Positions 12,539-60,979 of a DNA stretch of 64,000 nucleotides are shown piece by piece. The stretch is from Zhongshania sp. Lineage in GTDB: Bacteria > Pseudomonadota > Gammaproteobacteria > Pseudomonadales > Spongiibacteraceae. The stretch is from NCBI RefSeq assembly GCF_047636175.1, contig NZ_JBLIKC010000018.1, positions 14,481 to 78,480 on the forward strand. Reading direction: 5' to 3'. The position numbers and the translations under genes were made by a program. How positions within the stretch are numbered: the first letter of the stretch is position 1; every line of letters begins with the position of its first letter. The notes beneath the pieces are model-generated. The model saw only the letters and a list, made by a program, of their open reading frames with translations. It searched no databases and had not been told where the DNA came from.

Positions 12539-13708
12539 ATGAGCACTTCCTACCCTACTTTGAACTTTGGCCTCGGTGAAGAAGTTGAGATGTTGCGCGA
12601 TGCCGCCCAGCAATTTGCCCAGAAAGAAATTGCCCCCCGCGCGGAGAGCATCGACAAAGACAATGAGTTTCCCATGGACCTCTGGCGCAAAATGGGCGAC
12701 ATGGGCTTGCTCGGCATCACTGTCTCAGAAGAGTATGGCGGCAGCAATATGGGCTATCTGGCCCATGTTATTGCCATGGAAGAAATCAGCCGCGCTTCCG
12801 CGTCGGTGGGCCTTTCTTACGGCGCTCACTCCAATTTGTGCGTAAACCAACTCTTCAAGAATGGCACTGACGCCCAGCGCGAAAAATATCTGCCCAAACT
12901 CTGTTCAGGCGAACATATTGGCGCACTGGCCATGTCAGAACCCAATGCCGGCTCGGATGTTGTCAGCATGAAACTTAAAGCCGAAAAAGACGGTGACCAC
13001 TATGTGCTTAACGGCAATAAAATGTGGATCACCAATGGCCCCGATGCCCACACCTATATCATCTACGCAAAAACTGATATCCACGGCGGCTCACGCGGCA
13101 TTACCGCATTTATTGTCGAACGCGACTACCCCGGCTTTAGCCGCTCACCTAAATTAGACAAGCTCGGCATGCGTGGCTCCAACACCTGCGAGCTGGTGTT
13201 TGAAAACTGTAAAGTGCCAGCGGCAAATATTTTGGGCGCGGAAGGCGGCGGCGTAAATGTATTAATGAGCGGCTTAGATTTTGAACGCACGGTGCTATCT
13301 GGCGGGCCAACAGGCATTATGCAAGCCTGCCTCGACGTGGTGATCCCCTATCTTCACGACCGCAAACAATTCGGACAGAGCATTGGCGAGTTTCAATTGA
13401 TGCAAGGCAAATTGGCAGACATGTACACCGAATTGAATGCCAGTCGCGCCTATCTTTATACCGTCGCCAAAGCCTGTGATCGCGGTGAGGCCAGTCGTAA
13501 AGATGCGGCCGCTGTCATTTTGTATACTGCCGAGCGCGCCACCCAAATGGCACTACAAGCGATTCAAGCTCTGGGCGGTAATGGCTACACCAATGAATAT
13601 CCAACGGGCCGCTTACTGCGCGACGCCAAGCTTTATGAGATCGGCGCTGGCACCTCAGAAATTAGACGCATGTTGATTGGTCGTGAGCTCTTTAAAGAAA
13701 CGATGTAA
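12539..13708 (+). CDS. liuA: isovaleryl-CoA dehydrogenase
   Basis: [41 protein letters not shown]. Confidence 0.95.
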
Positions 13709-13759
13709 CACACTCGCTTATAAAAATTAATCCTAAGAAATACCATAGGCACCGCGACA

Positions 13760-15367
13760 ATGACTGTACTGACATCGACTATTAATCCACGCGACCCAAG
13801 CTTTATTGAAAACGCCGAACACATGCAAGCGCAAGTCGACGACTTAAAGCAGCTAGTCGCTAACATTAATCAAGGCGGTGGCGAAAAGTCACAGCGGCGT
13901 CATCAAGACAAGGGCAAGCTACTGCCCCGCGAGCGAATCAGCGCGCTAGTAGATGTGGGTGCCCCCTTTTTAGAGCTATCGCAACTGGCCGCCTATAAAG
14001 TCTATGACGAAGAAATCGCCGCTGCGGGCTTAATCACCGGCATCGGACGGGTCTGCGGTCAAGAGTGCATGATCATTGTTAATGACGCCACGGTGAAAGG
14101 CGGAAGTTACTTTCCGCTAACGGTAAAGAAACATTTACGCGCGCAAAATATCGCCCAAGAAAATCATTTGCCCTGTATTTACTTAGTCGATTCCGGCGGC
14201 GCCAATCTGCCCCGTCAAGACGAAGTGTTTCCAGATCGCGAGCACTTTGGTCGAATATTCTTCAATCAGGCAAATATGTCTGCAATGGGTATTCCGCAAA
14301 TCGCAGTGGTCATGGGTAGCTGCACCGCAGGCGGCGCTTACGTCCCGGCTATGGCGGACGAATCTATTATTGTCAAAGAGCAAGGCACGATTTTTCTGGC
14401 CGGCCCGCCATTGGTTAAGGCCGCCACCGGTGAAGTGGTTAGCGCGGAAGCCCTGGGCGGTGCAGATGTGCATTGCAAAGTGTCTGGCGTTGCCGACCAC
14501 TACGCCCAAAATGATCATCATGCTTTGCAAATAGCGCGCAATGCGGTAAAACGCTTGAATCGTTGCAAACCGATATCTATGGATATTAGCCCCAGCGTCG
14601 AGCCGGCTTTTTCACCCCAAGAAATTTACGGCGTGGTTCCCAAAGACAGCCGCAAACCCTACGATGTGAGAGAAGTGATTGCGCGGATTGTCGATGGCTC
14701 CGACTTCGACGAATTCAAAGCCCTATTTGGCACGAGCTTGGTATGTGGCTTTGCCCGCATCTTTGGCTATCCGGTGGGCATTGTGGCCAACAACGGTATT
14801 CTGTTTTCAGAGTCGGCACAAAAAGGCGCGCACTTTATTGAGCTGTGTGCGCAACGCAAAATTCCGCTGATCTTTTTACAAAATATCACCGGGTTTATGG
14901 TTGGCCAGCAATACGAATCTGGCGGCATTGCCAAGCACGGCGCCAAAATGGTGACTGCCGTTGCCTGCGCACAAGTACCTAAACTCACAGTATTGATTGG
15001 TGGCTCGTTCGGCGCAGGGAACTACGGGATGTGCGGCCGCGCTTACGACCCGCGCTTTATGTTTATGTGGCCTAATGCCCGCATCTCGGTTATGGGTGGC
15101 GAGCAAGCCGCTGGCGTGATGGCGCAAATCAAACGCGACCAGTATGAGCGCGAAAATAAAGATTGGCCAAGTGACGAAGAGCAGGCCTTTAAGCAACCTA
15201 TTCTCGACACCTACGAGGAACAGGGTCACCCCTACTTTGCATCAGCCAGACTGTGGGACGACGGTGTTATCGATCCTGCCGATACGCGCATGGTGCTGGG
15301 CTTAAGCCTGTCAGCCAGTTTGAACAAGCCCATAGCAGACACTAAATTTGGTGTCTTTAGAATGTAA
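13760..15367 (+). CDS. liuB: 3-methylcrotonyl-CoA carboxylase, carboxyltransferase subunit
   Basis: [40 protein letters not shown]; operon context. Confidence 0.95.
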
Positions 15368-15446
15368 GCCAAGCCCTAATTAATACACTAAATGCCGCCG
15401 TGATCGCTACGCCAAACGCGGGTAATAATATCCAGGAAATAAAATA

Positions 15447-17456
15447 ATGTTCGACAAAATTTTAATCGCAAACCGTGGTGAAATTGCCTGCCGAGTTATT
15501 AAGACGGCGCGTGAACTGGATATTCTAACCGTTGCTGTTTACAGTGACGCCGACCGCAGTGCGCTGCACGTCAGTATGGCTGACGAAGCCGTCTATATTG
15601 GCGCGTCGCCGGCTAGAGAATCCTATTTAGATGTTAATAAAATTATCGACGCAGCAAAAATAAGCGGCGCCCAAGCTATTCATCCCGGTTACGGTTTCCT
15701 ATCTGAAAACGCCGAGTTTTGTCGCCGCTGCGCAGCCGAGAATATCGTTTTTATTGGTCCGCCAACCAGCGCAATAGTGGCGATGGGATCGAAATCTGCC
15801 GCCAAAGACATTATGGGAAAAGCCGGCGTACCCCTGGTTCCCGGTTATCATGGCGCCGACCAGAATCCAGAAATCATTCGCCAGGCGGCTAATGATATGG
15901 GCTACCCGGTATTGCTAAAAGCCACCGCCGGGGGCGGCGGTAAGGGTATGCGACAAGTGTGGAGCGCCGAAGAGTTCGACAGCGCCCTGCAGGCCGCAAA
16001 GCGCGAAGCCCTTAATGGCTTCGGCGACGATACGATGTTGGTAGAAAAGTATCTTACCCAGCCACGCCACATCGAAATTCAAGTTTTCTGCGACAGCCAC
16101 GGCAACGCTGTTTATCTGTTTGAGCGCGACTGCTCTATTCAGCGCCGCCATCAAAAGGTCATTGAAGAAGCGCCCGCGCCGGGCTTAAGTTCGGCACTGC
16201 GTAGTGAAATGGGTAATGCCGCGGTATGCGCCGCGCAAGCCATAGACTACGTTGGCGCCGGCACCGTTGAATTTTTATTAGATAGCGACGGTAGTTTCTA
16301 TTTTATGGAAATGAATACCCGCTTACAGGTTGAGCACCCGGTCACTGAAATGATCACTGGCCTCGATCTAGTCGACTGGCAGCTCCGCGTTGCCGCGGGC
16401 GGTGTATTGCCACTGAAGCAAGATGAACTGCAAATTCGCGGTCATGCCATAGAAGCGCGAATCTATGCAGAAGATCCCGACAATGAGTTTTTGCCGCAAA
16501 CAGGCACCCTCCACTTTTTAGAAACCCCGTCTGAATCCGCCCACGTTCGCATTGATACCGGTGTGCGTGAAACCGATGAGGTAAGTGTGTTTTACGACCC
16601 GATGATTGCCAAGCTCATCGTCTGGGATGAAGACCGCGACGCCGCGCTGCGTCGCCTAAGTAGCGCACTTAAACAATACCGTATCAGCGGCGTGATCAAT
16701 AATATTGATTTTCTGCACACCCTCAGTCGTCATCCGGCCTTTGTTGCTGCCGATTTCGACACCGGTTTTATCGGCAAGCACGAAGCCAGTTTAATCGGCA
16801 TCGCCCAGCCCCAAAATCCCAGTAGCATAGCCCTCGCCGCCTTGTATTTAGTGCTGGCACAAAAGCAGCGCATCCAAGAATTTGCGCAAGCCAGTGGCGA
16901 AGCAAATTCGCCCTGGAACAATCCCCACAACTGGCGCCCCAACCAAGCCGCAGAACATCGCTTTACACTCAAAAGTGGCGACGATCTGCATACGGTAGCA
17001 GTGACCGCCCAGTCGAGCGCCATGGATTCTGCCTTTTTGATTCACTGCAATGACACCGCCTACACCGCAAGTGGCGAGCTAGCCGGCCGAGTAATGAAAG
17101 CAGATATAAATGGCCGCAAACTCACCGCCACCATTTCTGCTCATGGCGGCAGTTATAGCCTATTCAGTGCAGAGCCAACCCTGCACTTCGCTATTCACGG
17201 ACCGGACTTGGGTGACAACAGCAATGACGCCGGTGAAGATCAATTAGTCGCTCCCATGAACGGCACCGTGGTGAGCCACTTAGTAGAGACCAGCAGCAGC
17301 GTTGTCAAGGGCACTCCGCTGATGATTATGGAGGCCATGAAAATGGAGCACACCATTCGCGCACCCGCAGATGGCATCGTCAAGGCCTTCTATTTTCAGG
17401 CCGGCGAGCTAGTCAGCGGCGGTGCTGAGTTAATTCAATTTGAGCGAGCTGAATAA
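15447..17456 (+). CDS. liuD: 3-methylcrotonyl-CoA carboxylase, biotin carboxylase/biotin carrier subunit
   Basis: ILIANRGEIA, HPGYGFLSEN, MNTRLQVEH, C-terminal EAMKM biotinylation site. Confidence 0.92.
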   Translation: MFDKILIANRGEIACRVIKTARELDILTVAVYSDADRSALHVSMADEAVYIGASPARESYLDVNKIIDAAKISGAQAIHPGYGFLSENAEFCRRCAAENIVFIGPPTSAIVAMGSKSAAKDIMGKAGVPLVPGYHGADQNPEIIRQAANDMGYPVLLKATAGGGGKGMRQVWSAEEFDSALQAAKREALNGFGDDTMLVEKYLTQPRHIEIQVFCDSHGNAVYLFERDCSIQRRHQKVIEEAPAPGLSSALRSEMGNAAVCAAQAIDYVGAGTVEFLLDSDGSFYFMEMNTRLQVEHPVTEMITGLDLVDWQLRVAAGGVLPLKQDELQIRGHAIEARIYAEDPDNEFLPQTGTLHFLETPSESAHVRIDTGVRETDEVSVFYDPMIAKLIVWDEDRDAALRRLSSALKQYRISGVINNIDFLHTLSRHPAFVAADFDTGFIGKHEASLIGIAQPQNPSSIALAALYLVLAQKQRIQEFAQASGEANSPWNNPHNWRPNQAAEHRFTLKSGDDLHTVAVTAQSSAMDSAFLIHCNDTAYTASGELAGRVMKADINGRKLTATISAHGGSYSLFSAEPTLHFAIHGPDLGDNSNDAGEDQLVAPMNGTVVSHLVETSSSVVKGTPLMIMEAMKMEHTIRAPADGIVKAFYFQAGELVSGGAELIQFERAE

Positions 17457-17458
17457 TC

Positions 17459-18325
17459 ATGGCAAAGATATTCCCAAACAGAGCACGCATCGTCGAGGTA
17501 GGCCCACGAGATGGCCTCCAAAATGAAAAGCAGCCTATCGATATCGACACCCGTGTGCAGCTCATCAATAAACTTGCCGACGCCGGTCTTAGCTATATCG
17601 AAGTAGGCAGTTTTGTCAGCCCGAAGTGGGTGCCGCAAATGGCCGGTAGCGACCAAGTGTTTGCCGGTATAGAGCGCAAGCAAGATGTTCACTATATTGC
17701 CCTGACTCCCAATCTGCGCGGTTATGAGCAAGCGGTTCTTGCCGGTGCTAGCGAAGTGGCGATTTTCACCACCGCCTCTGAGGCCTTTGCCCAGAAAAAT
17801 ACCAATTGCTCCATCGCAGAAAACCTTGAACGGTTCACGCCGATTATTGCAAAAGCCAAAGCACAGGGAATGCCGGTACGCGGCTATATTTCCTGTATTG
17901 CGGGCTGCCCATACGAGGGTGATATTCCACCAGAAGCAGTTGCGCAGCTCGCCGTTAAATTAATTGAGATGGGCTGCTACGAAATTTCACTGGGCGACAC
18001 CATCGGCAGCGGTACCCCAGAGCAAATCACCGCTATCTTAAAGGTGGTATTGCAACACGTCCCAGCCGACAAACTTGCGGTGCACTTTCACGACACCAAT
18101 GGCCGCGCATTAGAAAATATTCGCGTGGCACTGCAGTCAGGCATTACCGTGATTGATAGCGCGATAGGCGGATTGGGTGGCTGCCCCTACGCCGAAGGCG
18201 CCTCAGGTAATGTGGCAACCGAGTCAGTCATCGGCTTATTGGATGAACTCAATATTGCCCACGGCATTAATCTTCCCAAGCTTTTACAAGCAAGTGCATT
18301 TATTACTCAGGCACTAAAGAGCTAA
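17459..18325 (+). CDS. liuE: hydroxymethylglutaryl-CoA lyase
   Basis: EVGPRDGLQNE, HFHDT, GLGGCPYAEGASGNVATE. Confidence 0.92.
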   Translation: MAKIFPNRARIVEVGPRDGLQNEKQPIDIDTRVQLINKLADAGLSYIEVGSFVSPKWVPQMAGSDQVFAGIERKQDVHYIALTPNLRGYEQAVLAGASEVAIFTTASEAFAQKNTNCSIAENLERFTPIIAKAKAQGMPVRGYISCIAGCPYEGDIPPEAVAQLAVKLIEMGCYEISLGDTIGSGTPEQITAILKVVLQHVPADKLAVHFHDTNGRALENIRVALQSGITVIDSAIGGLGGCPYAEGASGNVATESVIGLLDELNIAHGINLPKLLQASAFITQALKS

Positions 18326-18391
18326 GAAAGGAACAACAACCAGTGTGTAACGCTGGACACATTATCAGGTCTTAGCGCTAGGAAAAAAATA

Positions 18392-20344
<1,953 letters not shown>

Positions 20345-50379: not shown

Positions 50380-51500
50380 ATTATCACCGCCTTCAAACGA
50401 TCCGCTATGGCTTCGACCTTCGTTACGCCTTGTCTTGGGGACATGACAACGTGCTAACCGCCGGCACAATCGCTTATCTAGGCGACAACCCGCGCACCCG
50501 TCATATCAGCAATGACATTCGCTCCAGCGCACAGAACTCAGCGGATATAGCCTTCAAGCAGGACCGCGTCATCAGCTATAACGTTGTTTTTGTCGAGAAC
50601 CTATTCCGCTTCGGCAAACTTAGCGTGGTGCCCACCATGCGCTTCGAGCGGGTCAATTACGATTTAGCGGAAGTGGTGAAAAATCCGAATCTCAATCGGG
50701 AGGCCATCGACCTAGATCGCACTTTTAATGAAACCCTGTTCGGCTTGGGCCTGATGTACCAGACTAGTGAGCGGTCAGAAATATACGCCAACTTCTCAGA
50801 ATCTTATCGCCCGCAGCGCTTCGACGATCTGATCAACCCGGCATCGGAATTAGCGGGTAGCAACAACCCCAGCGTATCGCGCGCGGTCAACTACGAGATC
50901 GGTTATCGCAGCCAAGCGATTGATAATCTGGTTCTCGATATCAGTCTGTTTCGCATCGATTTCGAAGACAAAGTCGAGCAGATCCAAGTGACTGTCACCG
51001 ACGTTGAAAGGATAAATAGTGGCGACTCGCGCCATCAGGGTTTGGAGTTTAGCGTAGAGTACGACCTGCTACCGAGCATCTAGCGCTCACTGAAGTTGTT
51101 CGCCAACGGCTCTCTGCTGGATGCCGAAATAAGCAATAGCTTGAACACCAGCCTGATTGGCAACAGCACTGCATTCTCGCCCGAACATTTGCTGCGTACT
51201 TGCTTGCTGTTCGACAGCGAAAAGCGGAACGCCGCTCTTACCGCTACCATCGTAGGTGAACAGTATTGGCAGGACTCCAACCTAGCCCGTGGCAGCGGCG
51301 CCAATGAAGTCGCTGCCAAGATTTCAGGCTATGAGGTGCTGGACTTCAGCCTCGAATATGAATACAGAGAACAGTGGAGCTTGTACGGCGGCATCAACAA
51401 TATGTTAAACCAAGACTACTACAGCCGCGTGCGGGCCGACGGTATTGAGCCAGCTCAGGAGCGGACCTTTTATATGGGGTTCCGCTTCCAGATTCGCTAG
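50380..51500 (+). pseudogene. C-terminal half of a TonB-dependent receptor (FecA-like) with a premature stop
   Basis: Barrel strands (IYANFSESYRP, NYEIGYR, LYGGINNMLNQDYY, terminal FYMGFRFQIR); the two ORF-track pieces share one frame and are separated only by TAG 51081-51083; no signal peptide or plug upstream. Confidence 0.85.
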
Positions 51501-51533: not shown

Positions 51534-53948
51534 TTACCAAGCAAACGACAGCGATGCAAAAATCTTGCGGCCAGACTTTTGACGGGCGTTGTAGGAGCCG
51601 GGGAAAAATACGGTATCTAAGACCTGATTCAGTACTTTTTCTTCGGTTAAATTACTACCGCCCAAGGTTACAGCCCAACGTTGATCAGTGGAGCCCAGAC
51701 TAATCCTAGCCGACACTTGCGAGAAACCTTTGAGATAGCTATTGGGGTCTAAGTCCCCGTCGGTGTACTGATTACCCTGGTACAAATAATCTACACTGGC
51801 GCGCATGGCAAGGCCAAATAGCGGTAGGGTCAAGGTCGGAGTAATACTGGCGCTTTGCTCTGGCGCGAACGCAATACGCTTACCGCTGAGATCCTGCTTG
51901 GCATGAACACCCTGAGTAATCGGCGCTGGCGCATTGGGATAGCTGTCATATTTGGCATCTAGCAGTCCTAGCGATCCGGAAATACTAAGCGGCTCAAACG
52001 GCGTCAACCACATAAAGTCCATTTCCAAGCCACGGGATATTGCTGAAGCGGCATTAGTCACATCAAAGAACGCGCCGTTAAATGCCAATACCTGCAAATT
52101 ATCAAACTCGGTTTGGTACACCGCTGCATTCAAGCGCAGGGTGTTTTCAAAAAACTCGCCTTTAAATCCCGCCTCTATTGTCGCGGCTTCTTCCGGCTCA
52201 AAGGACAGATCTTCGCCGCCAAAAGACGAGGCATTAAAACCGCCGCTTTTATAGCCACGGGCATAGGTTAAAAATACATTAGTGTCGCGATTTAAATAAT
52301 ATTGAAACGCTAATTTAGGTGAAACATCGCTTTCCTTGCGACTTAAGCCTCGCTCATCGTAGTCTTCTGCGCTTAATGCCGACTCCATTATACAAGGCGT
52401 GCCCAGTGCGGCGGTGCGACAAACACCTTCTCCACTCGCATCCGCGACCTTTTGTTCGCGGCTATAACGAATACCCGGGGTGACAATAAACTGATCGGTC
52501 AAGGCCCAGCTCATTTGTGCAAAAACCGCTTGGGCATCCACATTCAAAAGGTAATCTAAACGAAAGAAATCTTCGCCACTGAGTGCGCCCGTTGAATTAC
52601 TGATCAAACCAATGCCGGCAAGGTTAAGCCCACCTAGCAAGCCTCCACTTGAAACACTGGTCTGTCCGGAGACCAGTTGCAAGGCGTCATCGGTGAGTAA
52701 ATAAGCGCCAAAGTCATCGCCAGTATTTATTTTCACACCCTGACTAAATCGCGAATCAAAGACATAAGCTCCCATTACAAATTCAACCCCCGAGCCGAGC
52801 CCAAATAGGCTGTCCGCCGTGCCGGTAAATCGTAGCTCGGCTGATTGCTGCTCGTAATCTGAGACCACCTCTAGCACCGCAAGGTTAGCCGGCGAGGTAT
52901 CCAGGTCGACCAAGCTGTCGATAGTTAATGCGGTATCAGCTAACACTAATACCATATTAAGATTATCTAGTGCGCCAACAGGAGCAATATCCCAGTCGGT
53001 TTTCAAGCCGAGGGTGTCAGAGGTCTTATCTAAGAAACCATCCTGATCATACGAACTGGTAAAATTATATGGATCGCCTTCAATATCGGGATCATAGTTT
53101 TTAAGGAAATCACTGCTGCCCTCATCTAGGCTCATTAACTGGAGGCCCCAGTAATTTGCCGATGTTTCTGAAGCCACACCCATCAATTCGAATGACACCT
53201 TTTCGGTGGGTAGAAATAATAATTTTATACGTTGGGCATTCTGTTCATGCTTATCATCTTGGCGATTCAAAAACTGATTGTGCAGCTGACCATCCCGGCT
53301 AATATCTTGTGCGGCGATACGAACACCAAACCAATCGGTAACCATGCCGCCAATACCCGCCTCTAAACTCACTTCCTCAGGATCGGTTTTATTCATCCGC
53401 AAATCCGCAGACAGCTGTTCAGTCGGACCTTTAGTGGTCACATTGAACACCCCAGCAATAGTGTTCTTGCCAAATAGAGTTCCCTGCGGACCCCGCAGCA
53501 CTTCAACTCGGGCAATATCGAACATCGCTTCGTTATAGTAAGAGGGGCGATTGAAGAATATTTCGTCTTGCACAAAGCCGACTGAACTATCAAAGGCCGA
53601 GTTAAGGGGATTAGAACCAAAACCACGGATATTAATTTGCGCCAGAGCAGGGTCAGTATCCGAAGAAAAACGCACATTCGGAATATAAGGGGCAATATCT
53701 TGCAAGCCGGTTGCGCCCACCTCGCGCATAAAGTCGCCGCTAACTGCTGTTAATGATATTGGTACGTCCTGAGATGATTGATTGACCTTTTGCGCGCTCA
53801 CCACCACTTCTTCCAACATGCGGCGACTAGACGAATCTGTGCTTTGCATTGACGTGGCATCTGACGACGTATCTGCCGCGATGACAGCTTGCGCCACACA
53901 GGCGACTATTCCCGCCGCCCACCAGCGCGTGTTTGAACCAATTAACAT
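51534..53948 (-). CDS. TonB-dependent receptor; start may be 53987
   Basis: Signal peptide, TonB box LEEVVVSAQK, plug EVLRGPQGTLFGKN, ARGYKSGGFN, terminal aromatic residue (SLSFAW). Confidence 0.93.
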   Translation of the reverse strand: MLIGSNTRWWAAGIVACVAQAVIAADTSSDATSMQSTDSSSRRMLEEVVVSAQKVNQSSQDVPISLTAVSGDFMREVGATGLQDIAPYIPNVRFSSDTDPALAQINIRGFGSNPLNSAFDSSVGFVQDEIFFNRPSYYNEAMFDIARVEVLRGPQGTLFGKNTIAGVFNVTTKGPTEQLSADLRMNKTDPEEVSLEAGIGGMVTDWFGVRIAAQDISRDGQLHNQFLNRQDDKHEQNAQRIKLLFLPTEKVSFELMGVASETSANYWGLQLMSLDEGSSDFLKNYDPDIEGDPYNFTSSYDQDGFLDKTSDTLGLKTDWDIAPVGALDNLNMVLVLADTALTIDSLVDLDTSPANLAVLEVVSDYEQQSAELRFTGTADSLFGLGSGVEFVMGAYVFDSRFSQGVKINTGDDFGAYLLTDDALQLVSGQTSVSSGGLLGGLNLAGIGLISNSTGALSGEDFFRLDYLLNVDAQAVFAQMSWALTDQFIVTPGIRYSREQKVADASGEGVCRTAALGTPCIMESALSAEDYDERGLSRKESDVSPKLAFQYYLNRDTNVFLTYARGYKSGGFNASSFGGEDLSFEPEEAATIEAGFKGEFFENTLRLNAAVYQTEFDNLQVLAFNGAFFDVTNAASAISRGLEMDFMWLTPFEPLSISGSLGLLDAKYDSYPNAPAPITQGVHAKQDLSGKRIAFAPEQSASITPTLTLPLFGLAMRASVDYLYQGNQYTDGDLDPNSYLKGFSQVSARISLGSTDQRWAVTLGGSNLTEEKVLNQVLDTVFFPGSYNARQKSGRKIFASLSFAW

Positions 53949-54139
53949 GATGACCCTACCTTTATTATTATTATTTGGCGCCGACATTGAGCATCGACTT
54001 GTTCAGATAGTCGCAAAAAACGGGGCGACTCTGAACATTTATATTGTCAACTATGTTTACATTATTAACGCGTCCACAAGCTGCCGTCAAGTGCCCTATT
54101 CCACACTTGAGGAAAGCCCAGATCGAAGAAATTCCACTG

Positions 54140-54177
54140 GACATTGACCCGCCCACAATGTCAATATAATTGACAAT
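54140..54177. promoter_or_regulatory. nested palindromes and a consensus -10 in the TonB receptor/GST divergent region
   Basis: GACATTG-N9-CAATGTC (54140-54162), GTCAAT-ATA-ATTGAC (54160-54174), TATAAT at 54165-54170. Confidence 0.5.
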
Positions 54178-54197
54178 TAAATAAGGAGAGTCGCATT

Positions 54198-54917
54198 GTG
54201 ATCGACCTGCATACCGTTCCTACGCCCAACGGCCATAAAATTTCAATCGCCCTGGAAGAACTGGGCCTAGAATACAATGTCATCCCCTACGACATCAGCG
54301 TAGGTGACCAATTTAAGCCGGAATTACTGGCGCTCAACCCCAACAATAAATTACCGGTGCTAGTAGACCACGACCCTATTTCAGGCAGTAGCGAGCCAAT
54401 GGTGATTTTTGAGACCGGCGCTATCCTCCTCTATCTCGCCGAGAAAACCGGCAAACTGATGGCGCAAGATCCCGCGACTCGCTTTCAGCAACTGCAGTGG
54501 CTGATGTTCCAAGTATCAAGTGTTGGTCCTTTACAGGGACAAGCCCATCACTTTATTCGCTATGCGCGAGTTCCGCAGGATTACGCCCGGGAACGCTATG
54601 TTAACGAAAGCCTACGTCAATGCCGCGTGCTAGAAGCTCAGCTCCAACAGCAAGACTATTTGGCTGGCGACTACTCTATCGCCGATATTGCCTGCTGGCC
54701 TTGGCTGCGCTGCTTGTCCTTAATTGATATTCATCTCGACAAAGACTTCCCCCGTTTGCACCACTGGTTTAAACGCATTGAAGAACGACCCGCAGTACAA
54801 AAAGGCAAGGATGTCATTCATGGCTGGGTCTATCAGCTGCCGCCAAATTTTAAAATGGAATTAGACGAGAAAACGTGGTCATATTCCTTCGGTGAAGAAC
54901 AATATCGCCAACGCTAA
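54198..54917 (+). CDS. glutathione S-transferase, Nu class (YfcG/YghU-like)
   Basis: TPNGHKI motif, FETGAILLYLAEK, YSIADIACWPW. Confidence 0.88.
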   Translation: MIDLHTVPTPNGHKISIALEELGLEYNVIPYDISVGDQFKPELLALNPNNKLPVLVDHDPISGSSEPMVIFETGAILLYLAEKTGKLMAQDPATRFQQLQWLMFQVSSVGPLQGQAHHFIRYARVPQDYARERYVNESLRQCRVLEAQLQQQDYLAGDYSIADIACWPWLRCLSLIDIHLDKDFPRLHHWFKRIEERPAVQKGKDVIHGWVYQLPPNFKMELDEKTWSYSFGEEQYRQR

Positions 54918-54941
54918 TAAATAGGCTTAATAGGAGTTTTT

Positions 54942-55712
54942 ATGCAGGACTTATTTTCGATTGCAGGCAAAACCGCTCTGGTCACCGGTGGCTCGCGTGG
55001 TATTGGTGCCATGATCGCTGAGGGCTTTGTGCGCGCCGGTGCCAAGGTCTATATCACCTCACGCAAGGCCAAAGAACTTAACGAGACCTGCGTTCGGCTG
55101 TCTGAGCTGGGCGAGTGTATTGCTATTCCCTCAGACTTATCTCAATTAGATGGTATTAAACAGTTAGCTGATGAGCTAATAAGCAGAGAGAGTAAACTGG
55201 ATATTCTGATTAACAACGCAGGCGCAACCTGGGGCGCTCCTATCGATGAGTTTCCGGAAAGCGGCTGGGATAAGGTCATGGATCTCAATGTAAAATCGGT
55301 GTTCTTTCTCACCCAAAAATTACTGCCCTTGCTGCGCAGCGCGGCGACCAAAGATGAACCTGCACGGGTTGTAAATCTGGCATCCATCTACGCATTGCGC
55401 TACTCACATCAGAATACTTTTTCCTACTCCGCTAGCAAGGCAGCCGTGCTGCAACTCACCCAGCAATTAGGTGCTAGCTTGATTAAAGACCACATCAATG
55501 TGAATGCCATTGCACCCGGCTTATTCCCCAGTAATATGACCGCCTTCTTAATGGAAGACGAAGAAGCCCTGAATAACAGTATTCCCATGAACCGCACTGG
55601 TAAGTTGGAAGACGCTGCGGGTACCGCCATTTATTTATGTTCACGCGCATCGTCGTATATGACTGGCGGACTGCTAGTTATTGACGGCGGATCAGTCGTC
55701 AGCGCCGGATAA
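54942..55712 (+). CDS. short-chain dehydrogenase/reductase
   Basis: TGGSRGIG, NNAG, YSASK. Confidence 0.9.
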   Translation: MQDLFSIAGKTALVTGGSRGIGAMIAEGFVRAGAKVYITSRKAKELNETCVRLSELGECIAIPSDLSQLDGIKQLADELISRESKLDILINNAGATWGAPIDEFPESGWDKVMDLNVKSVFFLTQKLLPLLRSAATKDEPARVVNLASIYALRYSHQNTFSYSASKAAVLQLTQQLGASLIKDHINVNAIAPGLFPSNMTAFLMEDEEALNNSIPMNRTGKLEDAAGTAIYLCSRASSYMTGGLLVIDGGSVVSAG

Positions 55713-55741
55713 AGCATAAACTCAAAAGACCTGAGCTAGCT

Positions 55742-56941
55742 ATGAATAAACCCCTCAAGGGCCTGCGCATTTTGGATTTAACCCATATGCTGTCGGGCCC
55801 ATTTTGCACTATGACACTAGCTGACCTCGGCGCTGATCTCGTCAAAGTGGAACCGATCAGCGGCGAAGGCACCCGCAAATTACTGGCCAACGACCCCCGG
55901 CATTCCATAGACGGCATGGGTGCGTATTTCATCACTCTAAATCGTAATAAACGCAGTATCGCTATCGATTTAAAAAGCGCTGAAGGTTTAGATATTTTTT
56001 ACGATTTAGTTAAAACCGCCGATATAGTGATTAATAATTTTGCCGCTGGCGTCCCCGCCAAACTCAAAATTGATTACCCACATTTGGCAAAGATAAATTC
56101 ACGCATTATTAGCTGCTCAATTACCGGATTTGGCGAAGACGGCCCCGGTGCAAATCGACCTGCCTTCGACCAAGTAGCTCAAGCCTATGGTGGCGGTATG
56201 TCCATTACCGGCACAGATGCCAGCCAGCCCATGCGAGCAGGTATACCTATCGGCGATTTGGGCGGTGGTATGTTTGGCATTATGGGAATACTTAGCGCAG
56301 TGATAGAACGTCATACTTCCGGTGTTGGCCAGCACGTTGATATCTCTATGCTCGATGTGCAGATTTCATTACTAAATTACATGGCCACCATGTATCACCT
56401 GTCGGGTGAGAACCCCCACCCTATCGGCAATAGTCATTTTGTGCACGTGCCTTACAACAGCTATCCAACCGCCGACGGCCATCTTGTTATTTGTGTGCTC
56501 ACCGATAACTTCTGGCACAAGCTAAAAGACTTGGTGAACTGCCCAGCCCTTGATAGCTCCAAATACGACAGCCAGCCAGGACGCTTGGCAGCCAAAGCAA
56601 TAATTGACCAAACCTTAGCCGATATTTTCCGCCTCGACAGCACCGCAAACTGGCTAACAAAATTAAATGACGCACGGATTCCAGTCGCACCGGTTAATAA
56701 TTTTGAGCAGGCATTAAATGACCCACAGGTGCAGCATCGCAATATGGTCGTTGAGCTAAAGCACCCCTCAGGTGCGAGCACCAAGGGTCCAGGCAACCCC
56801 ATTAAACTGTCACGCAGCAATGAAGAATCCTTCTCTGCGGCACCGCTACTGGGCCAAAATACTGATGAACTGATGGCGGAATTAAGCAACTACTCAGCAG
56901 CGGATACCGCGAGACTAAAAGCCGCGGGTATCATTGCCTAA
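55742..56941 (+). CDS. CaiB/BaiF family III CoA-transferase
   Basis: LDLTHMLSGP, LNRNKRSIAIDLK, PAFDQVAQA (catalytic Asp region). Confidence 0.9.
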   Translation: MNKPLKGLRILDLTHMLSGPFCTMTLADLGADLVKVEPISGEGTRKLLANDPRHSIDGMGAYFITLNRNKRSIAIDLKSAEGLDIFYDLVKTADIVINNFAAGVPAKLKIDYPHLAKINSRIISCSITGFGEDGPGANRPAFDQVAQAYGGGMSITGTDASQPMRAGIPIGDLGGGMFGIMGILSAVIERHTSGVGQHVDISMLDVQISLLNYMATMYHLSGENPHPIGNSHFVHVPYNSYPTADGHLVICVLTDNFWHKLKDLVNCPALDSSKYDSQPGRLAAKAIIDQTLADIFRLDSTANWLTKLNDARIPVAPVNNFEQALNDPQVQHRNMVVELKHPSGASTKGPGNPIKLSRSNEESFSAAPLLGQNTDELMAELSNYSAADTARLKAAGIIA

Positions 56942-56963
56942 GAACACACCAAAAGAATACCGG

Positions 56964-57887
56964 ATGACGAATTACGCCATGGCTGAAAAAATTATAATTA
57001 ACGATGTTGGTCCCCGCGATGGCTTGCAAAATCAAGCGGTAACACTTGAACCACAACAGCGCGTGGCCTTAATTCAAGCATTGCTCAAAGCCGGTGTAAC
57101 ACATATTGAAGTAGGCTCATTTGTATCTCCTGCCGCTGTGCCAGCAATGCGTGGCACTGCTGAGGTCATCGTCGCGCTACCTAAAGGCGATTTTCACTTC
57201 TCTGCGCTCATCCCTAACCTCAAAGGGTATGAATTAGCCAAAGCCTCTGGCATCGACACGGTTAGCCTTGTTATTGCCGCCAGTAACGCCATGAATGAAA
57301 AAAATATTCGCATGAACAATGCCCAAGTCTTAAGCTTTGCCAAAGACGTATTGGGCAGAGGTCAAGCGGATAACTTTCGCACTCTCGCCTGCATTGCTAC
57401 CGCCTGGGAGTGTCCTTTTGAAGGTTTGATACCGGAGAAAACGGTGATCGACTTATGCAGCGAATTATTCGCCGCCGGCGCCCCCGAAGTGGTATTAGCC
57501 GATACCATTGGTGCGGCCTCACCAGCGCAGGTGAAGTCACTTATGAGTAAGCTAGTCGCGGAGTTTGGTGCACAGCGCCTGTCATGCCATTTTCACGACA
57601 CCCGCGCAATGGGCGTCGCCAATGTTTTCGCGGCAATAGAATGCGGTATACGTAAATTCGATTCTTCGATTGGCGGCTTGGGCGGCTGCCCCTTTGCACC
57701 CGGTGCATCGGGTAATGTCGCCACCGAAGACGTGGTGCTCATGCTAAATCAAATGGGCTTTGATACTGGTATCGACTTAGCCAAGCTTGTACTGGCTGCC
57801 GATTTAGTAGCCGAGCAAACCGGCGCACATGCGACTGCAAATTCTGCAAAATGGATTAAGCGACAAATTGAAAAAGGTCTGCTTTAA
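56964..57887 (+). CDS. second HMG-CoA lyase family enzyme; start uncertain
   Basis: DVGPRDGLQN, HFHDT, GLGGCPFAPGASGNVATED. Confidence 0.88.
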   Translation: MTNYAMAEKIIINDVGPRDGLQNQAVTLEPQQRVALIQALLKAGVTHIEVGSFVSPAAVPAMRGTAEVIVALPKGDFHFSALIPNLKGYELAKASGIDTVSLVIAASNAMNEKNIRMNNAQVLSFAKDVLGRGQADNFRTLACIATAWECPFEGLIPEKTVIDLCSELFAAGAPEVVLADTIGAASPAQVKSLMSKLVAEFGAQRLSCHFHDTRAMGVANVFAAIECGIRKFDSSIGGLGGCPFAPGASGNVATEDVVLMLNQMGFDTGIDLAKLVLAADLVAEQTGAHATANSAKWIKRQIEKGLL

Positions 57888-58113: not shown

Positions 58114-58767
58114 TCACTCAGAATGGCTCTCTTCAGGAAGATAGGGGCCAGGCAGTAAACCTAGATTCGGGGCATTAATGGCTACCGTATTAGCGGCAGA
58201 TGAAAGCGCTGGTGTGCGATCAACAATGGAACCGGCAATCTGATCTACAATTGCGCCAATTATGGCGCCAGCTAAGCCACCACCACCGTCGCCGGATGAC
58301 TGTTGGGCAAACGCACGCGTCGTCCACAATAACTCTCCAGACCTCGCATCAATGAGCTTAAGTTCAGAATCCACAATAGTCGCCGAGTTAACCAATTGAA
58401 ACTTCTGTCCCCATTGATTAATGGTGGTATATAAAACCGCATCAGCACCGATAATCTCACGTAGCTTTTGCAGTGGCACGCCATTCATTTCACCGGGCGA
58501 AGGCAAGCCATTCTCTTTCAAAAATTGATCGATAACAGCTACTGGAAAAACGTAATACCCCTTCTCTGCAAGCGGCTTAGACACAGTAGAAATAAAGGTG
58601 TAGGGAGCATTTACGGCCACTGATTCATTGAGTGGCGGAATAACAAGGATGGAGCGAGGCTTATTCGCTTCAAGTGCAGAGTAGTCATATGGTGCGACCT
58701 GGCAAGCGGCAAGCGAAAAAGCCAGCAGCACAAAAAAACCTGCTTTACTGATTATCGACCTGTTCAT
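58114..58767 (-). CDS. DUF799/GNA1162 family lipoprotein
   Basis: Lipobox LAAC, PRSILVIPPLNES, LAEKGYYVFPV, GADAVLY. Confidence 0.85.
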   Translation of the reverse strand: MNRSIISKAGFFVLLAFSLAACQVAPYDYSALEANKPRSILVIPPLNESVAVNAPYTFISTVSKPLAEKGYYVFPVAVIDQFLKENGLPSPGEMNGVPLQKLREIIGADAVLYTTINQWGQKFQLVNSATIVDSELKLIDARSGELLWTTRAFAQQSSGDGGGGLAGAIIGAIVDQIAGSIVDRTPALSSAANTVAINAPNLGLLPGPYLPEESHSE

Positions 58768-59126
58768 TATCGCGCTCCTTGCTGCTGTAAGCGTGATAAA
58801 AACCCATCGATCATCACTGCAGATTCTGGGTACAGCGCTTTCTCCTGGAGAAAAGCCGTCGTCGCCTGTGGCAGATTACCCACGGCGCTATACATATAAG
58901 CTAAATGGCCATACACACCCGGAGGAACGGCTTGGCCATTATCCTGAGCGCGCTGGATATCTTGCGTTAATTTTTGAATTTGCAGGTCCGGTGGTGCCTC
59001 GCCGGGTTTGACATACATCTTATAGATCAGGTCCTCATAGCTACCCCAGTAATACATGGATTTTTGGGCAGGCACGCACGCGACACACGTCAGCGCTAAC
59101 ACGCAGACTAAAATAATATTTTTCAT
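58767..59126 (-). CDS. DUF4810 family lipoprotein
   Basis: Lipobox, YYWGSY, VPPGVYGHL, EKALYPES. Confidence 0.85.
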   Translation of the reverse strand: MKNIILVCVLALTCVACVPAQKSMYYWGSYEDLIYKMYVKPGEAPPDLQIQKLTQDIQRAQDNGQAVPPGVYGHLAYMYSAVGNLPQATTAFLQEKALYPESAVMIDGFLSRLQQQGAR

Positions 59127-59141
59127 TGGAGTCCTTTCCTG

Positions 59142-59840
59142 TTAACTACCGGCCGACCAAACTCCAGCTTCCAAATCACGAACCATATTATTAACTGCTT
59201 CGGTGATGGCGAAATTGAGTACCTTGCCATTTAGTGTGGCGTCATAGCCTGCCGTACCGCCAAAACCAACAACTTCGCGGTTACTCAGCGCATATTCACC
59301 CGCACCCTGAGTGGAGTAAACAATCTCAGAAGTGGTCACATCAACTATATTAATCGACACCTTGGCATAGGCAGTTTGGGTTTTTCCCGAGCCTAGTATT
59401 CCGAATAACTGTTGATCGCCCGTCGTCTTTCTACCAAATTCAGTAACATCACCAGTGACTGCGAAACGCGCGCCACTTAGTTTCTGTTTTATACCGCTAA
59501 GCTTTGCTTCTTCAGCAATACGCGCCATATTTTCGCGATCAACGACGGTAAAGCGATTGGTTTGCTGGAGATGGGTTTTTAAGATGGTCTTTGCCTGATT
59601 ACCCAACTGATCGGAACCAGAGCTGAAAATACCCTGCAGATAATTTGAGCGATTATCAAACTGACCAACCACTAGCACCTGCTTGCGACCTGAGTAGGCT
59701 GTGCCATAACTAGCGACCGTCTGCGATTGCACTACCTGATGCGATTCGGTCGCGCAGGCAGACAGCATTAATGCTGCGCCAATCGCTGCCAAGGAACGCC
59801 CTAAATGATGAAAATATTTTAAACTCTGAATAGTCAACAT
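59142..59840 (-). CDS. CsgG/HfaB family lipoprotein
   Basis: Lipobox LSAC, FDNRS, RFTVVDRENM, GDVTEFGR. Confidence 0.85.
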   Translation of the reverse strand: MLTIQSLKYFHHLGRSLAAIGAALMLSACATESHQVVQSQTVASYGTAYSGRKQVLVVGQFDNRSNYLQGIFSSGSDQLGNQAKTILKTHLQQTNRFTVVDRENMARIAEEAKLSGIKQKLSGARFAVTGDVTEFGRKTTGDQQLFGILGSGKTQTAYAKVSINIVDVTTSEIVYSTQGAGEYALSNREVVGFGGTAGYDATLNGKVLNFAITEAVNNMVRDLEAGVWSAGS

Positions 59841-60073: not shown

Positions 60074-60979
60074 TTAGACTGCAGCGTCAGCGCCTCGGAC
60101 ATGCACCAAGATCAAACTCACTAACTCGTCTAGTAGTGCTTCGGGTAAGTCGTGGCCCATCCCTTCAATAATTTCGAGGCGGGCATTGGGGATGCGGCGC
60201 GCGGTATCTTTCGCGCCTTTAAGCGGCAACATAGGGTCTTTGTCACCGTGTATCACTAAGGTGGGGCTTTTAATTTTATGAAGTAGCTTCTGACGATTAC
60301 CGCTGGCCATTATCGCCGCCATATGACGCGCCTTACCAGCTGGGTGATGGCCACGATCATAAGCCGCTTCAATTCGCGCTCGCAGCTGTTGCTCTGGATC
60401 ACCGAGTTCTGGGCTCGATATTAATCGCCACGTTTTTAGGGAGTGGGCAATTTGCGCCTCGCGATCGGGAGCCGCTTTATTCAATATATGCCAAAGCACT
60501 TTTGGCTTCATGCCGCCAAAACTGGAACTAGACATCAGCGACACCAGCGAACTAACTCGTTCAGGATAATTAGCCGCCATCAATTGGGCAATCATACCGC
60601 CCATCGATGCGCCCACAATGTGAGCACTAGAAATATTCAGCGCGTCGAGCAGTGCAACCGTATCGGCGGTCATATCATCTAAGGTATACGCCACGTTTAA
60701 TGGCAACTTGAATTGTTGACGCAGCCGCAAGCCAATAATGCTTAGCGGCCTGTCGTCATCTACTTTAGTAGACAAACCAACGTCGCGATTATCGAAGCGA
60801 ATGACGCGATAGCCGCCGTCTGCAAGCAGATGACAAAAGGATTCTGGCCACACTATTAACTGACTGGCGTAGCCCATAATGAGCAAAATTACCGGCGCGT
60901 CGGGCTCGCCAATGTCTTCGTATGCCAGTTCAATACCATCACTTACTACAATACGGTCTCGTGTCCATTCCATGCCCAT
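60074..60979 (-). CDS. alpha/beta hydrolase
   Basis: RFDNRDVGLS, GASMGG, IHGDKDP, GMGHDLP. Confidence 0.88.
   Translation of the reverse strand: MGMEWTRDRIVVSDGIELAYEDIGEPDAPVILLIMGYASQLIVWPESFCHLLADGGYRVIRFDNRDVGLSTKVDDDRPLSIIGLRLRQQFKLPLNVAYTLDDMTADTVALLDALNISSAHIVGASMGGMIAQLMAANYPERVSSLVSLMSSSSFGGMKPKVLWHILNKAAPDREAQIAHSLKTWRLISSPELGDPEQQLRARIEAAYDRGHHPAGKARHMAAIMASGNRQKLLHKIKSPTLVIHGDKDPMLPLKGAKDTARRIPNARLEIIEGMGHDLPEALLDELVSLILVHVRGADAAV

Follow-up and report, generated by a model that had tools for sequence, protein, structure and literature searches.

The question that arises at positions 51534 to 57887 of the window, by which we mean the whole 64,000-nucleotide stretch of Zhongshania DNA analysed here (Spongiibacteraceae; genome labelled G000, with sampled relatives labelled G002, G004 and so on), is which compound would be taken up and degraded by a TonB-dependent receptor and the products of four genes that run divergently from it, namely a glutathione transferase (GST), a short-chain dehydrogenase/reductase (SDR), a family III CoA-transferase and a lyase of the 3-hydroxy-3-methylglutaryl-CoA (HMG-CoA) lyase type (HMGL). 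As judged from gene order, promoter motifs and phyletic distribution, these genes are probably one arm of a single conserved catabolic regulon that is controlled by a MarR-family repressor and whose second arm lies elsewhere in this genome. To the regulon model as a whole, in which a lactone, a ring-cleavage product or a 4-oxo/4-hydroxy branched acid would be imported and broken down to a retro-Claisen end, we assign a probability of about 0.45. All proteins fall into known folds and families, and the novelty lies in their combination and its regulation; the present result is a well-supported description of a gene set.

An initial annotation of this DNA had reported five genes at the locus and proposed uptake and breakdown of a branched acid or conjugate. 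The open reading frame (ORF) listing and the Pfam and NCBIfam scans recovered the same genes and families at the same places, with the receptor on the minus strand and divergent from the four plus-strand genes:

51534..53987, minus strand: TonB-dependent outer-membrane receptor (TBDR); 817 aa as the longest ORF, 804 aa from the probable start at 53948
54045..54061, no strand: distal operator-like palindrome, TGTCAAC-TAT-GTTTACA, in the receptor-side part of the control region
54159..54175, no strand: proximal operator-like perfect palindrome TGTCAAT-ATA-ATTGACA, overlapping a TATAAT hexamer (54165-54170), 28 nt 5' of the GST start codon
54198..54917, plus strand: Nu-class (YfcG-like) glutathione transferase, 239 aa (Pfam GST_N/GST_C)
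54942..55712, plus strand: classical SDR, 256 aa, RhlG nearest (Pfam adh_short)
55742..56941, plus strand: family III (Frc/CaiB-type) CoA-transferase of the dicarboxylate-type clade, 399 aa (PF02515)
56934..57887, plus strand: HMG-CoA-lyase-family (DRE-TIM) acyl-CoA lyase (PF00682), with a probable start at ATG 56964 or 56979

The tight spacing that had been described was found as well. GST and SDR genes are 24 nt apart, those of the SDR and the CoA-transferase 29 nt, and the last junction depends on the lyase start: the longest lyase ORF, with a TTG start, overlaps the transferase gene by 8 nt, and the two ATG codons give gaps of 22 or 37 nt. Lyase homologues align from about residue 16. The shared control region, put earlier at about 250 nt, measures 210 nt up to the longest receptor ORF or 249 nt up to the 804-aa start, which most database relatives use. 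No terminator-like and no strong promoter-like site was found inside the four-gene run, and no Rfam family, riboswitches and small RNAs in the control region included, was matched at E <= 0.1.

Neighbourhoods were compared across 24 other genomes of the same GTDB genus plus G000. Twelve genus genomes preserve the order receptor-GST-(SDR)-CoA-transferase-lyase together with its short gaps, although the identity of the CoA-transferase falls to about 71% among them; the gaps stay within 11-56 nt over 71-98% identity, and the genes beyond the lyase differ from genome to genome. Because short gaps are kept in 12 genomes while the genes beyond the lyase change, the arrangement is more than chance, and the comparison bears out the earlier claim of a co-conserved unit under one control region. 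Orthologs of the CoA-transferase (about 72% identical or more) occur in 13 of the 24 other genomes and those of the GST in 14, including all 13 with the transferase; G007 has the GST alone and 10 genomes have neither. Wherever the GST is present in the genus, i.e., in 15 of 15 genomes, a receptor ortholog stands divergent from it. Part of this conservation is plain inheritance, as the receptor side is syntenic in several genomes. The order-level sample outside the genus held no CoA-transferase ortholog above 40% identity, and the receptor+GST form of the locus is confined to Spongiibacteraceae.

Natural variants of the operon occur within the genus. The SDR is absent from it in four of the 15 genomes (G004, G009, G011 and G024; SDR-less loci L019 in G004, L023 in G011 and L119 in G024), the CoA-transferase in G007 (L117) and the lyase in G008 (L022). 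G009 has a GST neighbourhood devoid of the SDR-CoA-transferase-lyase run, with receptor and GST beside genes for MbnP, an MbnH-like peroxidase and FeoB, and a separate locus with LeuDC and transferase-lyase-isochorismatase genes (L116 and L024 for the two loci of G009).

The evidence that carries the regulon beyond the window is a motif, TGTCAA-N5-TTGACA, of which two copies lie in the receptor/GST control region. An alignment of this intergenic region from 14 genomes shows both palindromes to be strongly conserved and the proximal one to be nearly invariant; besides the distal palindrome, only two other sites in the genome match TGTMAA-N5-TTKACA. Five relatives carry the second arm directly beyond the receptor gene, contiguous with the operon arm, as two divergently transcribed units. 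In one (a), the gene for a 390-aa alpha/beta-hydrolase and a MarR gene point away from each other; in the other (b), a gene for a VOC-fold protein points away from genes for an acyl-CoA dehydrogenase (ACAD), a kinase of the APH family and a DUF6285 protein of 123 aa. The motif recurs in the hydrolase/MarR and VOC/ACAD divergent regions of G000, G002, G004, G008, G011 and G015. The second arm of G000 lies outside the window (contig C22, 53942-59974; MarR gene at 55334-55786), with motif sites at C22:55176 and C22:57295, and the operator has been retained in both arms despite their separation. Of the 10 sites that a loose 16-nt form of the motif has in the 3.7 Mb genome, four fall within the three regulon promoter regions. 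The phyletic patterns agree with this picture: an ortholog of the hydrolase is present in exactly the 14 other genus genomes that have the GST, and one of the kinase in 13 of them, the exception being G009, which also lost the SDR-transferase-lyase run beside its GST. In the remaining 10 of the 24 genomes, no ortholog of hydrolase, kinase, GST or CoA-transferase was found.

Other regulatory candidates were discarded. A TetR gene of G000 (C23, 16434-17090) was ruled out as the module regulator, as it is frameshifted and its region occurs only in G000 and G002; within C23 16434-17139 (L120, 6435-7140) the gene is broken into at least three frames, and a third palindrome of the perfect type, TGTCAA-N5-TTTACA, lies about 25 nt 5' of its start. 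TetR_C_41 regulators, which precede receptor homologues in two other taxa, have no ortholog in G000. A sigma-54 reading of a conserved CTGGACA box was abandoned because the -12 element is, by eye, not conserved.

The transferase/lyase pair is found far beyond this regulon. A scan of the genome collection yielded 80 marine gammaproteobacterial loci/species with CoA-transferase orthologs of 63-80% identity, from Cellvibrionales, Alteromonadales and others, and their neighbouring genes were clustered to obtain the common context. The lyase directly follows the transferase in about 74 of the 80 loci. Genes that are common upstream of the pair encode a TonB receptor, a VOC-like protein and, as regulator, either a PrpR-like sigma-54 activator or a GntR protein. 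Downstream, HyuA/HyuB genes of the ATP-dependent lactamase type (caprolactamase nearest) are found in 45-49 loci; an isochorismatase-type amidase lies near the pair in 42 and LeuC/LeuD-like hydratase genes in 15. Loci of the Microbulbifer type carry nicotinate-pathway-like genes in place of the HyuAB context. The pair is hence a widely shared terminal module, a spread that the initial annotation had missed, as it had the second regulon arm. The window operon shares with this orphan HyuA/HyuB-isochorismatase-LeuCD-TonB cluster an orthologous transferase (63-76% identical) and lyase (50-72%) in the same order and spacing, but differs in its front end of GST, SDR and MarR regulon partners. G000 itself has no HyuA ortholog (the best match, 38% identical, is located elsewhere) and no LeuCD-like paralogue; its sole strong LeuC match (44%) presumably serves leucine biosynthesis, and two weak aconitase-family matches reach 31-32%.

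In a quick maximum-likelihood search with IQ-TREE, the 12 GST-linked CoA-transferases form one group (support 86) on a short branch. Its sister group, joined to it with support 100, consists of LeuCD-linked copies, among them those of the second type in G009 and G020. It follows that one ancestral event attached the pair to receptor and GST. A few further features of the other loci may be recorded here. In the HyuAB-type cluster, two proteins of about 245 aa with no Pfam match are encoded directly upstream of the CoA-transferase (L048, L055, L063, L090 and L105). The Microbulbifer-type islands (L025, L038-L044) contain an RCC_reductase-family gene, two Amdase-family genes and an ICL/PEP-mutase-family gene. 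In four unrelated loci (L045, L063, L086 and L100) a different GST, with a maleylacetoacetate-isomerase-like N-terminal domain, adjoins the same transferase/lyase pair, so that the association with a glutathione enzyme must have come about more than once.

Versions of the regulon also occur in more distant bacteria. In G038, a member of a different family within the order, the genes run SDR', HMGL' (43% identical), VOC (64%), MarR (53%), hydrolase (71%) and CoA-transferase' (27%), with two motif sites between HMGL' and VOC and one between MarR and hydrolase; the ACAD11-like, kinase and DUF6285 genes are on a separate contig. Receptor homologues of about 50% identity are encoded in Nevskiales, and one of them adjoins VOC, MarR, hydrolase and GST homologues: Solimonas combines the receptor (50%), VOC (53%), MarR (46%), hydrolase (65%), a Nu-class GST (50%) and an HMGL paralogue (42%) with an upstream motif site. 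The CoA-transferases of G038 and Solimonas belong to a different clade, with 58% identity between the two and 27-31% identity to the window enzyme. Enzymes of both types, family III transferase and HMGL, are thus part of the regulon in three lineages, but as different paralogues, and have been recruited to it repeatedly. We infer that the Spongiibacteraceae pair was taken from the orphan lactamase/amidase/LeuCD pathway and displaced the paralogues used in other lineages.

What the individual proteins could do was approached through their nearest characterised relatives. The receptor has the Plug and beta-barrel Pfam domains and scores below every NCBIfam equivalog cutoff for siderophore, haem and B12 receptors. 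For the GST, the best NCBIfam match is the model of YfcG-type glutathione-dependent disulfide oxidoreductases (PRK13972; 202 bits, under the equivalog cutoff of 332). It is about 55% identical to Escherichia coli YfcG, is extended at its C-terminus by about 37 aa and matches the PDB entries 4l8e (1e-66), 5hfk and 3gx0, with YfcG at 1e-58. Its residues T9-P10-N11 align with YfcG and make up the Thr-Pro-Asn motif described for the Nu class (PMC5892560). It is the third Nu-class paralogue of the genome, the other two being 46% and 44% identical to it. The SDR matches RhlG best (2b4q, 2e-75; next match 2e-41). Neither the hydrolase nor the VOC protein has an informative relative among solved structures, and the hydrolase has no close characterised relative; the VOC protein is of the small one-domain form and weakly matches a FosA-type glutathione transferase model.

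The CoA-transferase is covered by PF02515 over its full length (8e-119, residues 5-374), and its best solved relative is human SUGCT (9br6, 1.8e-72). It stays far below the cutoffs of both the succinate-glutarate/HMG CoA-transferase model NF052585 (295 bits, cutoff 750) and the succinyl-CoA:mesaconate CoA-transferase model NF041294 (292 bits, cutoff 700). D172, in a Gly-rich loop, is invariant across 14 orthologs and is a candidate counterpart of Frc Asp169. The lyase passes the cutoff of PRK05692, the NCBIfam HMG-CoA lyase subfamily model (317 bits, cutoff 246; PF00682 at 2.8e-45). In an alignment with the human enzyme (2cw6) and four bacterial structures it conserves the counterparts of human R41, D42, E72, D204, H233, H235, C266 (in the GLGGCP loop) and N275, the catalytic and metal-binding residues of human HMG-CoA lyase. 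It is 41% identical to liuE of the same window (17459-18325), which is the only other HMG-CoA-lyase-type gene of the genome, and its gene context is unlike that of leucine catabolism; the description of the lyase as a second paralogue distinct from liuE was therefore right. The liu cluster itself (12539-20344) comprises genes for isovaleryl-CoA dehydrogenase, both methylcrotonyl-CoA carboxylase subunits, liuE and an acetoacetyl-CoA-synthetase-like gene. Unlike the liu clusters of Porticoccaceae, it lacks a gene for methylglutaconyl-CoA hydratase (liuC) between those of the two carboxylase subunits.

The second arm adds what resembles a known route for 4-hydroxy acids. The best solved relative of the ACAD is ACAD11 (8v3u, 6e-74; ordinary ACADs about 1e-40), and the kinase (PF01636) matches 3dxp and the kinase domain of ACAD11. 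Their genes overlap by 4 nt (G000 C22, 57358-59600), and the DUF6285 protein directly follows the kinase, a position that makes it a candidate counterpart of LvaB. In Pseudomonas putida, LvaD reduces levulinyl-CoA, LvaA together with the 12-kDa LvaB phosphorylates 4-hydroxyvaleryl-CoA, and LvaC eliminates the phosphate to give the enoyl-CoA; in ACAD10/11 the kinase and ACAD functions are fused (PMC6692424, PMC11342911, PMC12440821). The likeness to lvaABCDE and to mammalian ACAD10/ACAD11 comprises the APH kinase, the ACAD11-like ACAD, a CoA-activating enzyme and, as putative counterparts of LvaB and LvaD, the small protein after the kinase and an SDR (PMC6692424, PMC11342911). Together with the SDR and the transferase encoded in the window, the regulon would cover all five lva functions, as judged by family membership. 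The regulon differs in using a family III transferase instead of an AMP-forming ligase (the LvaE-type acyl-CoA synthetase) and a MarR-type regulator instead of the sigma-54 activator LvaR, and in having its genes spread over three divergent units. It further adds an HMGL-type lyase, a Nu-class GST, the VOC protein, the alpha/beta-hydrolase and the TonB receptor, none of which the lva pathway needs.

From these relatives, the following sequence of reactions may be inferred. The receptor would import the compound, and the VOC-fold enzyme and the hydrolase might then open a ring, a lactone or an ester. On the resulting enone- or maleyl-type electrophile, the YfcG-like GST could perform a glutathione-dependent step, either a cis-trans isomerisation or the reductive removal of glutathione next to a carbonyl, the latter being a reaction of which Nu-class GSTs are capable (PMC5892560). 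The family III transferase would form the CoA ester, probably from succinyl-CoA, and the SDR would reduce a 4-oxo to a 4-hydroxy group, as LvaD does in levulinate breakdown. Kinase and ACAD11-like enzyme would convert the 4-hydroxyacyl-CoA via a 4-phospho intermediate into a 2-enoyl-CoA, and after hydration the HMGL-type lyase would split a 3-hydroxy-3-alkyl acyl-CoA into acetyl-CoA and an oxo compound. A tertiary alcohol acyl-CoA of this kind is beyond the reach of beta-oxidation, and a beta-branch in the substrate would explain why the Lva-type module and the HMGL-type lyase are co-regulated. The underlying idea of a CoA-transferase that feeds an HMGL-type retro-Claisen lyase, already part of the initial annotation, is sound.

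Several observations weigh against this model. Close homologues of the GST in other taxa (four loci, 56-68% identical) have unrelated neighbours, for which reason we dropped the attempt to read the function of the GST off their context. G009 and G020 keep receptor and GST with no transferase or lyase next to them. The transferase/lyase pair is closest to copies that accompany LeuCD-like hydratases and lactamases, and this kinship points to a small hydroxy-dicarboxylate of the citramalate type as a possible substrate, on a branch separate from the Lva-like enzymes. With the labour so divided, the pair may take care of a branched fragment, a C5-type diacid of the citramalate kind to which the LeuCD association points, and the Lva-like enzymes of a second fragment. 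The loose motif is genome-wide no commoner than in shuffled sequence, so that the operator argument rests on position and conservation, and the putative binding of the MarR protein to the palindrome is likewise deduced from these two features only. Lastly, among 400 evenly sampled Gammaproteobacteria the hydrolase was found in only six (51-59% identical), and just the VOC and SDR neighbours recurred with it. Across the class sample the full regulon thus did not recur beyond this hydrolase-VOC(-SDR) core, the VOC-hydrolase pairing being the most widely conserved part of the regulon.

In view of these points, simpler explanations have to be weighed. The receptor might import 3-hydroxy-3-methylglutarate or (R)-citramalate/D-malate, which would be activated from succinyl-CoA in the manner of SUGCT and cleaved to acetyl-CoA and acetoacetate or pyruvate, with GST and SDR as accessory or protective enzymes and the shared operator as a sign of loose co-regulation only. 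This salvage would suit a transferase whose best solved relative is the human succinate-hydroxymethylglutarate CoA-transferase, a lyase that passes the HMG-CoA lyase cutoff with all catalytic residues kept, and an SDR that four of 15 genomes can dispense with. The occurrence of the pair with neither GST nor SDR in about 70 other species, in 15 of them beside LeuCD-like hydratases, would also fit 2-alkylmalate (citramalate-type) substrates. However, the transferase lies far under the glutarate and mesaconate equivalog cutoffs, and the GST, an extra third Nu-class paralogue, accompanies the transferase in 13 of 13 transferase-bearing genus genomes and occurs by itself in G007 only. As the operator in addition ties the operon to hydrolase, VOC and Lva-like genes, and as the regulon of other lineages uses other transferase and lyase paralogues, we regard simple salvage as unlikely.

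The presence of a GST could alternatively indicate a glutathione-conjugate route of the isoGHIJ (isoprene) or styGHIJ (styrene) type, in which an epoxide or enone adduct would be oxidised by the SDR (IsoH-like), thioesterified by the transferase (IsoG-like) and deglutathionylated by the GST (IsoJ/StyJ-like) before lyase cleavage. The isoGHIJ cluster unites a family III (Frc-type) transferase, IsoG, with the SDR-type dehydrogenase IsoH and with IsoJ, which is proposed to strip glutathione from the CoA thioester (PMC10057887), and StyJ/IsoJ are Ure2p-like and homologous to YfcG/YghU (PMC8552685). The Thr-Pro-Asn motif of our GST and the weak FosA-type match of the VOC protein would be in line with such a route. 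Kinship to IsoG, IsoH and IsoJ is, however, at the family level only, and neither regulon arm encodes a monooxygenase or an IsoI/StyI-type, epoxide-conjugating GST, with the lyase and Lva-like genes standing in place of aldH. Moreover, copies 63-76% identical to the transferase occur in species that lack a GST gene in the vicinity, and only a short branch leads to the GST-linked group, which makes a switch to a bulky glutathionyl substrate improbable and the conjugate route as a whole quite unlikely. One could finally ask whether there is a common pathway at all, since receptor and GST might be a separate redox- or metal-related unit beside which the pair landed in the ancestor of the genus. 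The MbnP-MbnH-FeoB neighbourhood of G009 with its pair elsewhere among LeuCD-like and isochorismatase genes, the unrelated contexts of GST homologues and the partly simple inheritance of the syntenic receptor side would all be compatible with mere juxtaposition. It is hard to reconcile with gaps that stay short over 71-98% identity with no internal signals, with one common phyletic pattern of the genes, with an operator kept in both arms after their separation in G000, and with the independent entry of an HMGL-type lyase and a family III transferase into the same regulon in two other lineages, and we consider it very improbable.

For the regulon model, which we prefer, the remaining known systems offer partial parallels. 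SUGCT and HMG-CoA lyase share with the window pair the principle that a family III transferase hands a hydroxy-dicarboxyl-CoA to a metal-dependent retro-Claisen lyase; the window transferase, however, lies far below the equivalog cutoffs. The same transferase-to-lyase logic is seen, by description and not by sequence, in the succinyl-CoA:(R)-citramalate CoA-transferase and (R)-citramalyl-CoA lyase of Chloroflexus aurantiacus. According to Friedmann et al. in 2006/2007, the Chloroflexus lyase reportedly belongs to the HMG-CoA-lyase family and adjoins its transferase. Gentisate and homogentisate triads (dioxygenase, glutathione-dependent maleyl isomerase and C-C hydrolase) as well as pairs of extradiol dioxygenase and meta-cleavage hydrolase resemble the regulon in its VOC-fold protein, GST and alpha/beta-hydrolase, yet the regulon GST is of the Nu and not the zeta class and the VOC protein has a single small domain. 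In beta-aryl-ether cleavage, NaGSTNu with a LigD-type SDR likewise combines a Thr-Pro-Asn Nu-class GST with an SDR that might create the carbonyl for reductive glutathione removal (PMC5892560). The window GST, however, belongs to the YfcG subtype (200-228 bits to YfcG-type structures, 108 bits to NaGSTNu) and is the only GST at the locus, where no beta-etherase (LigE/LigF) match and no aromatic-acid genes were found. The lignin beta-aryl-ether origin that the initial annotation had entertained finds no support on these grounds and on those of the unrelated contexts of close GST homologues; its reading of the locus as one for uptake and breakdown is partly supported, as regards the co-conserved unit, the second lyase paralogue and the lyase logic. 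In agreement with its statement that no described pathway fits, our literature search, in a body of text that misses most subscription journals, returned no published pathway with this gene combination.

One could further speculate, though we consider it a long shot, that the regulon represents a bacterial route, not described before, by which methyl-substituted rings or lactones left over from algal isoprenoid lipids would be degraded. Candidate substrates may be the head groups of tocopherols or prenylquinols (a methylated hydroquinone with a gamma-lactone or a 4-hydroxy-4-methyl acid side chain) or carotenoid-derived butenolides. The receptor may then serve a hydrophobic substrate, the hydrolase may be a lactonase or a C-C hydrolase, the VOC protein a ring-cleaving dioxygenase and the GST an isomerase or glutathione lyase acting on a maleyl or enone product, while the Lva-like enzymes may handle the 4-hydroxy acid side chain and transferase and HMGL-type lyase a methyl-branched diacid. 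If this were true, the widespread orphan lactamase/amidase cluster would make the same branched diacid from a nitrogen ring.

The regulon is of wider relevance in that three modules which marine and lipid-degrading bacteria use repeatedly, i.e., the transferase/HMGL pair, the Lva/ACAD11-type module and the hydrolase-VOC pair, are joined here into one regulated unit, whose operator can be recognised by its sequence. Its single predicted repressor-operator pair provides a handle for finding the inducer and hence the substrate. As the same transferase/lyase pair ends the widespread lactamase/amidase pathway, identification of the substrate here would narrow down that pathway too. It would also be the first physiological role for a YfcG-type Nu-class GST in a catabolic operon.

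Two minor observations concern the surroundings of the locus. Convergent with the intact receptor gene, two neighbouring plus-strand ORFs (50430-51083 and 51096-51500) are fragments of one TonB-receptor beta-barrel; together (50430-51500) they are probably an old pseudogene, which is split in the same way in G006, the closest relative. On the other side, a minus-strand trio of CsgG-like, DUF4810 and GNA1162-like lipoprotein genes (58114-59840) lies between the lyase gene and an alpha/beta-hydrolase gene at 60074-60979, and as it is found there only in G000, G005 and G006 it looks inserted.

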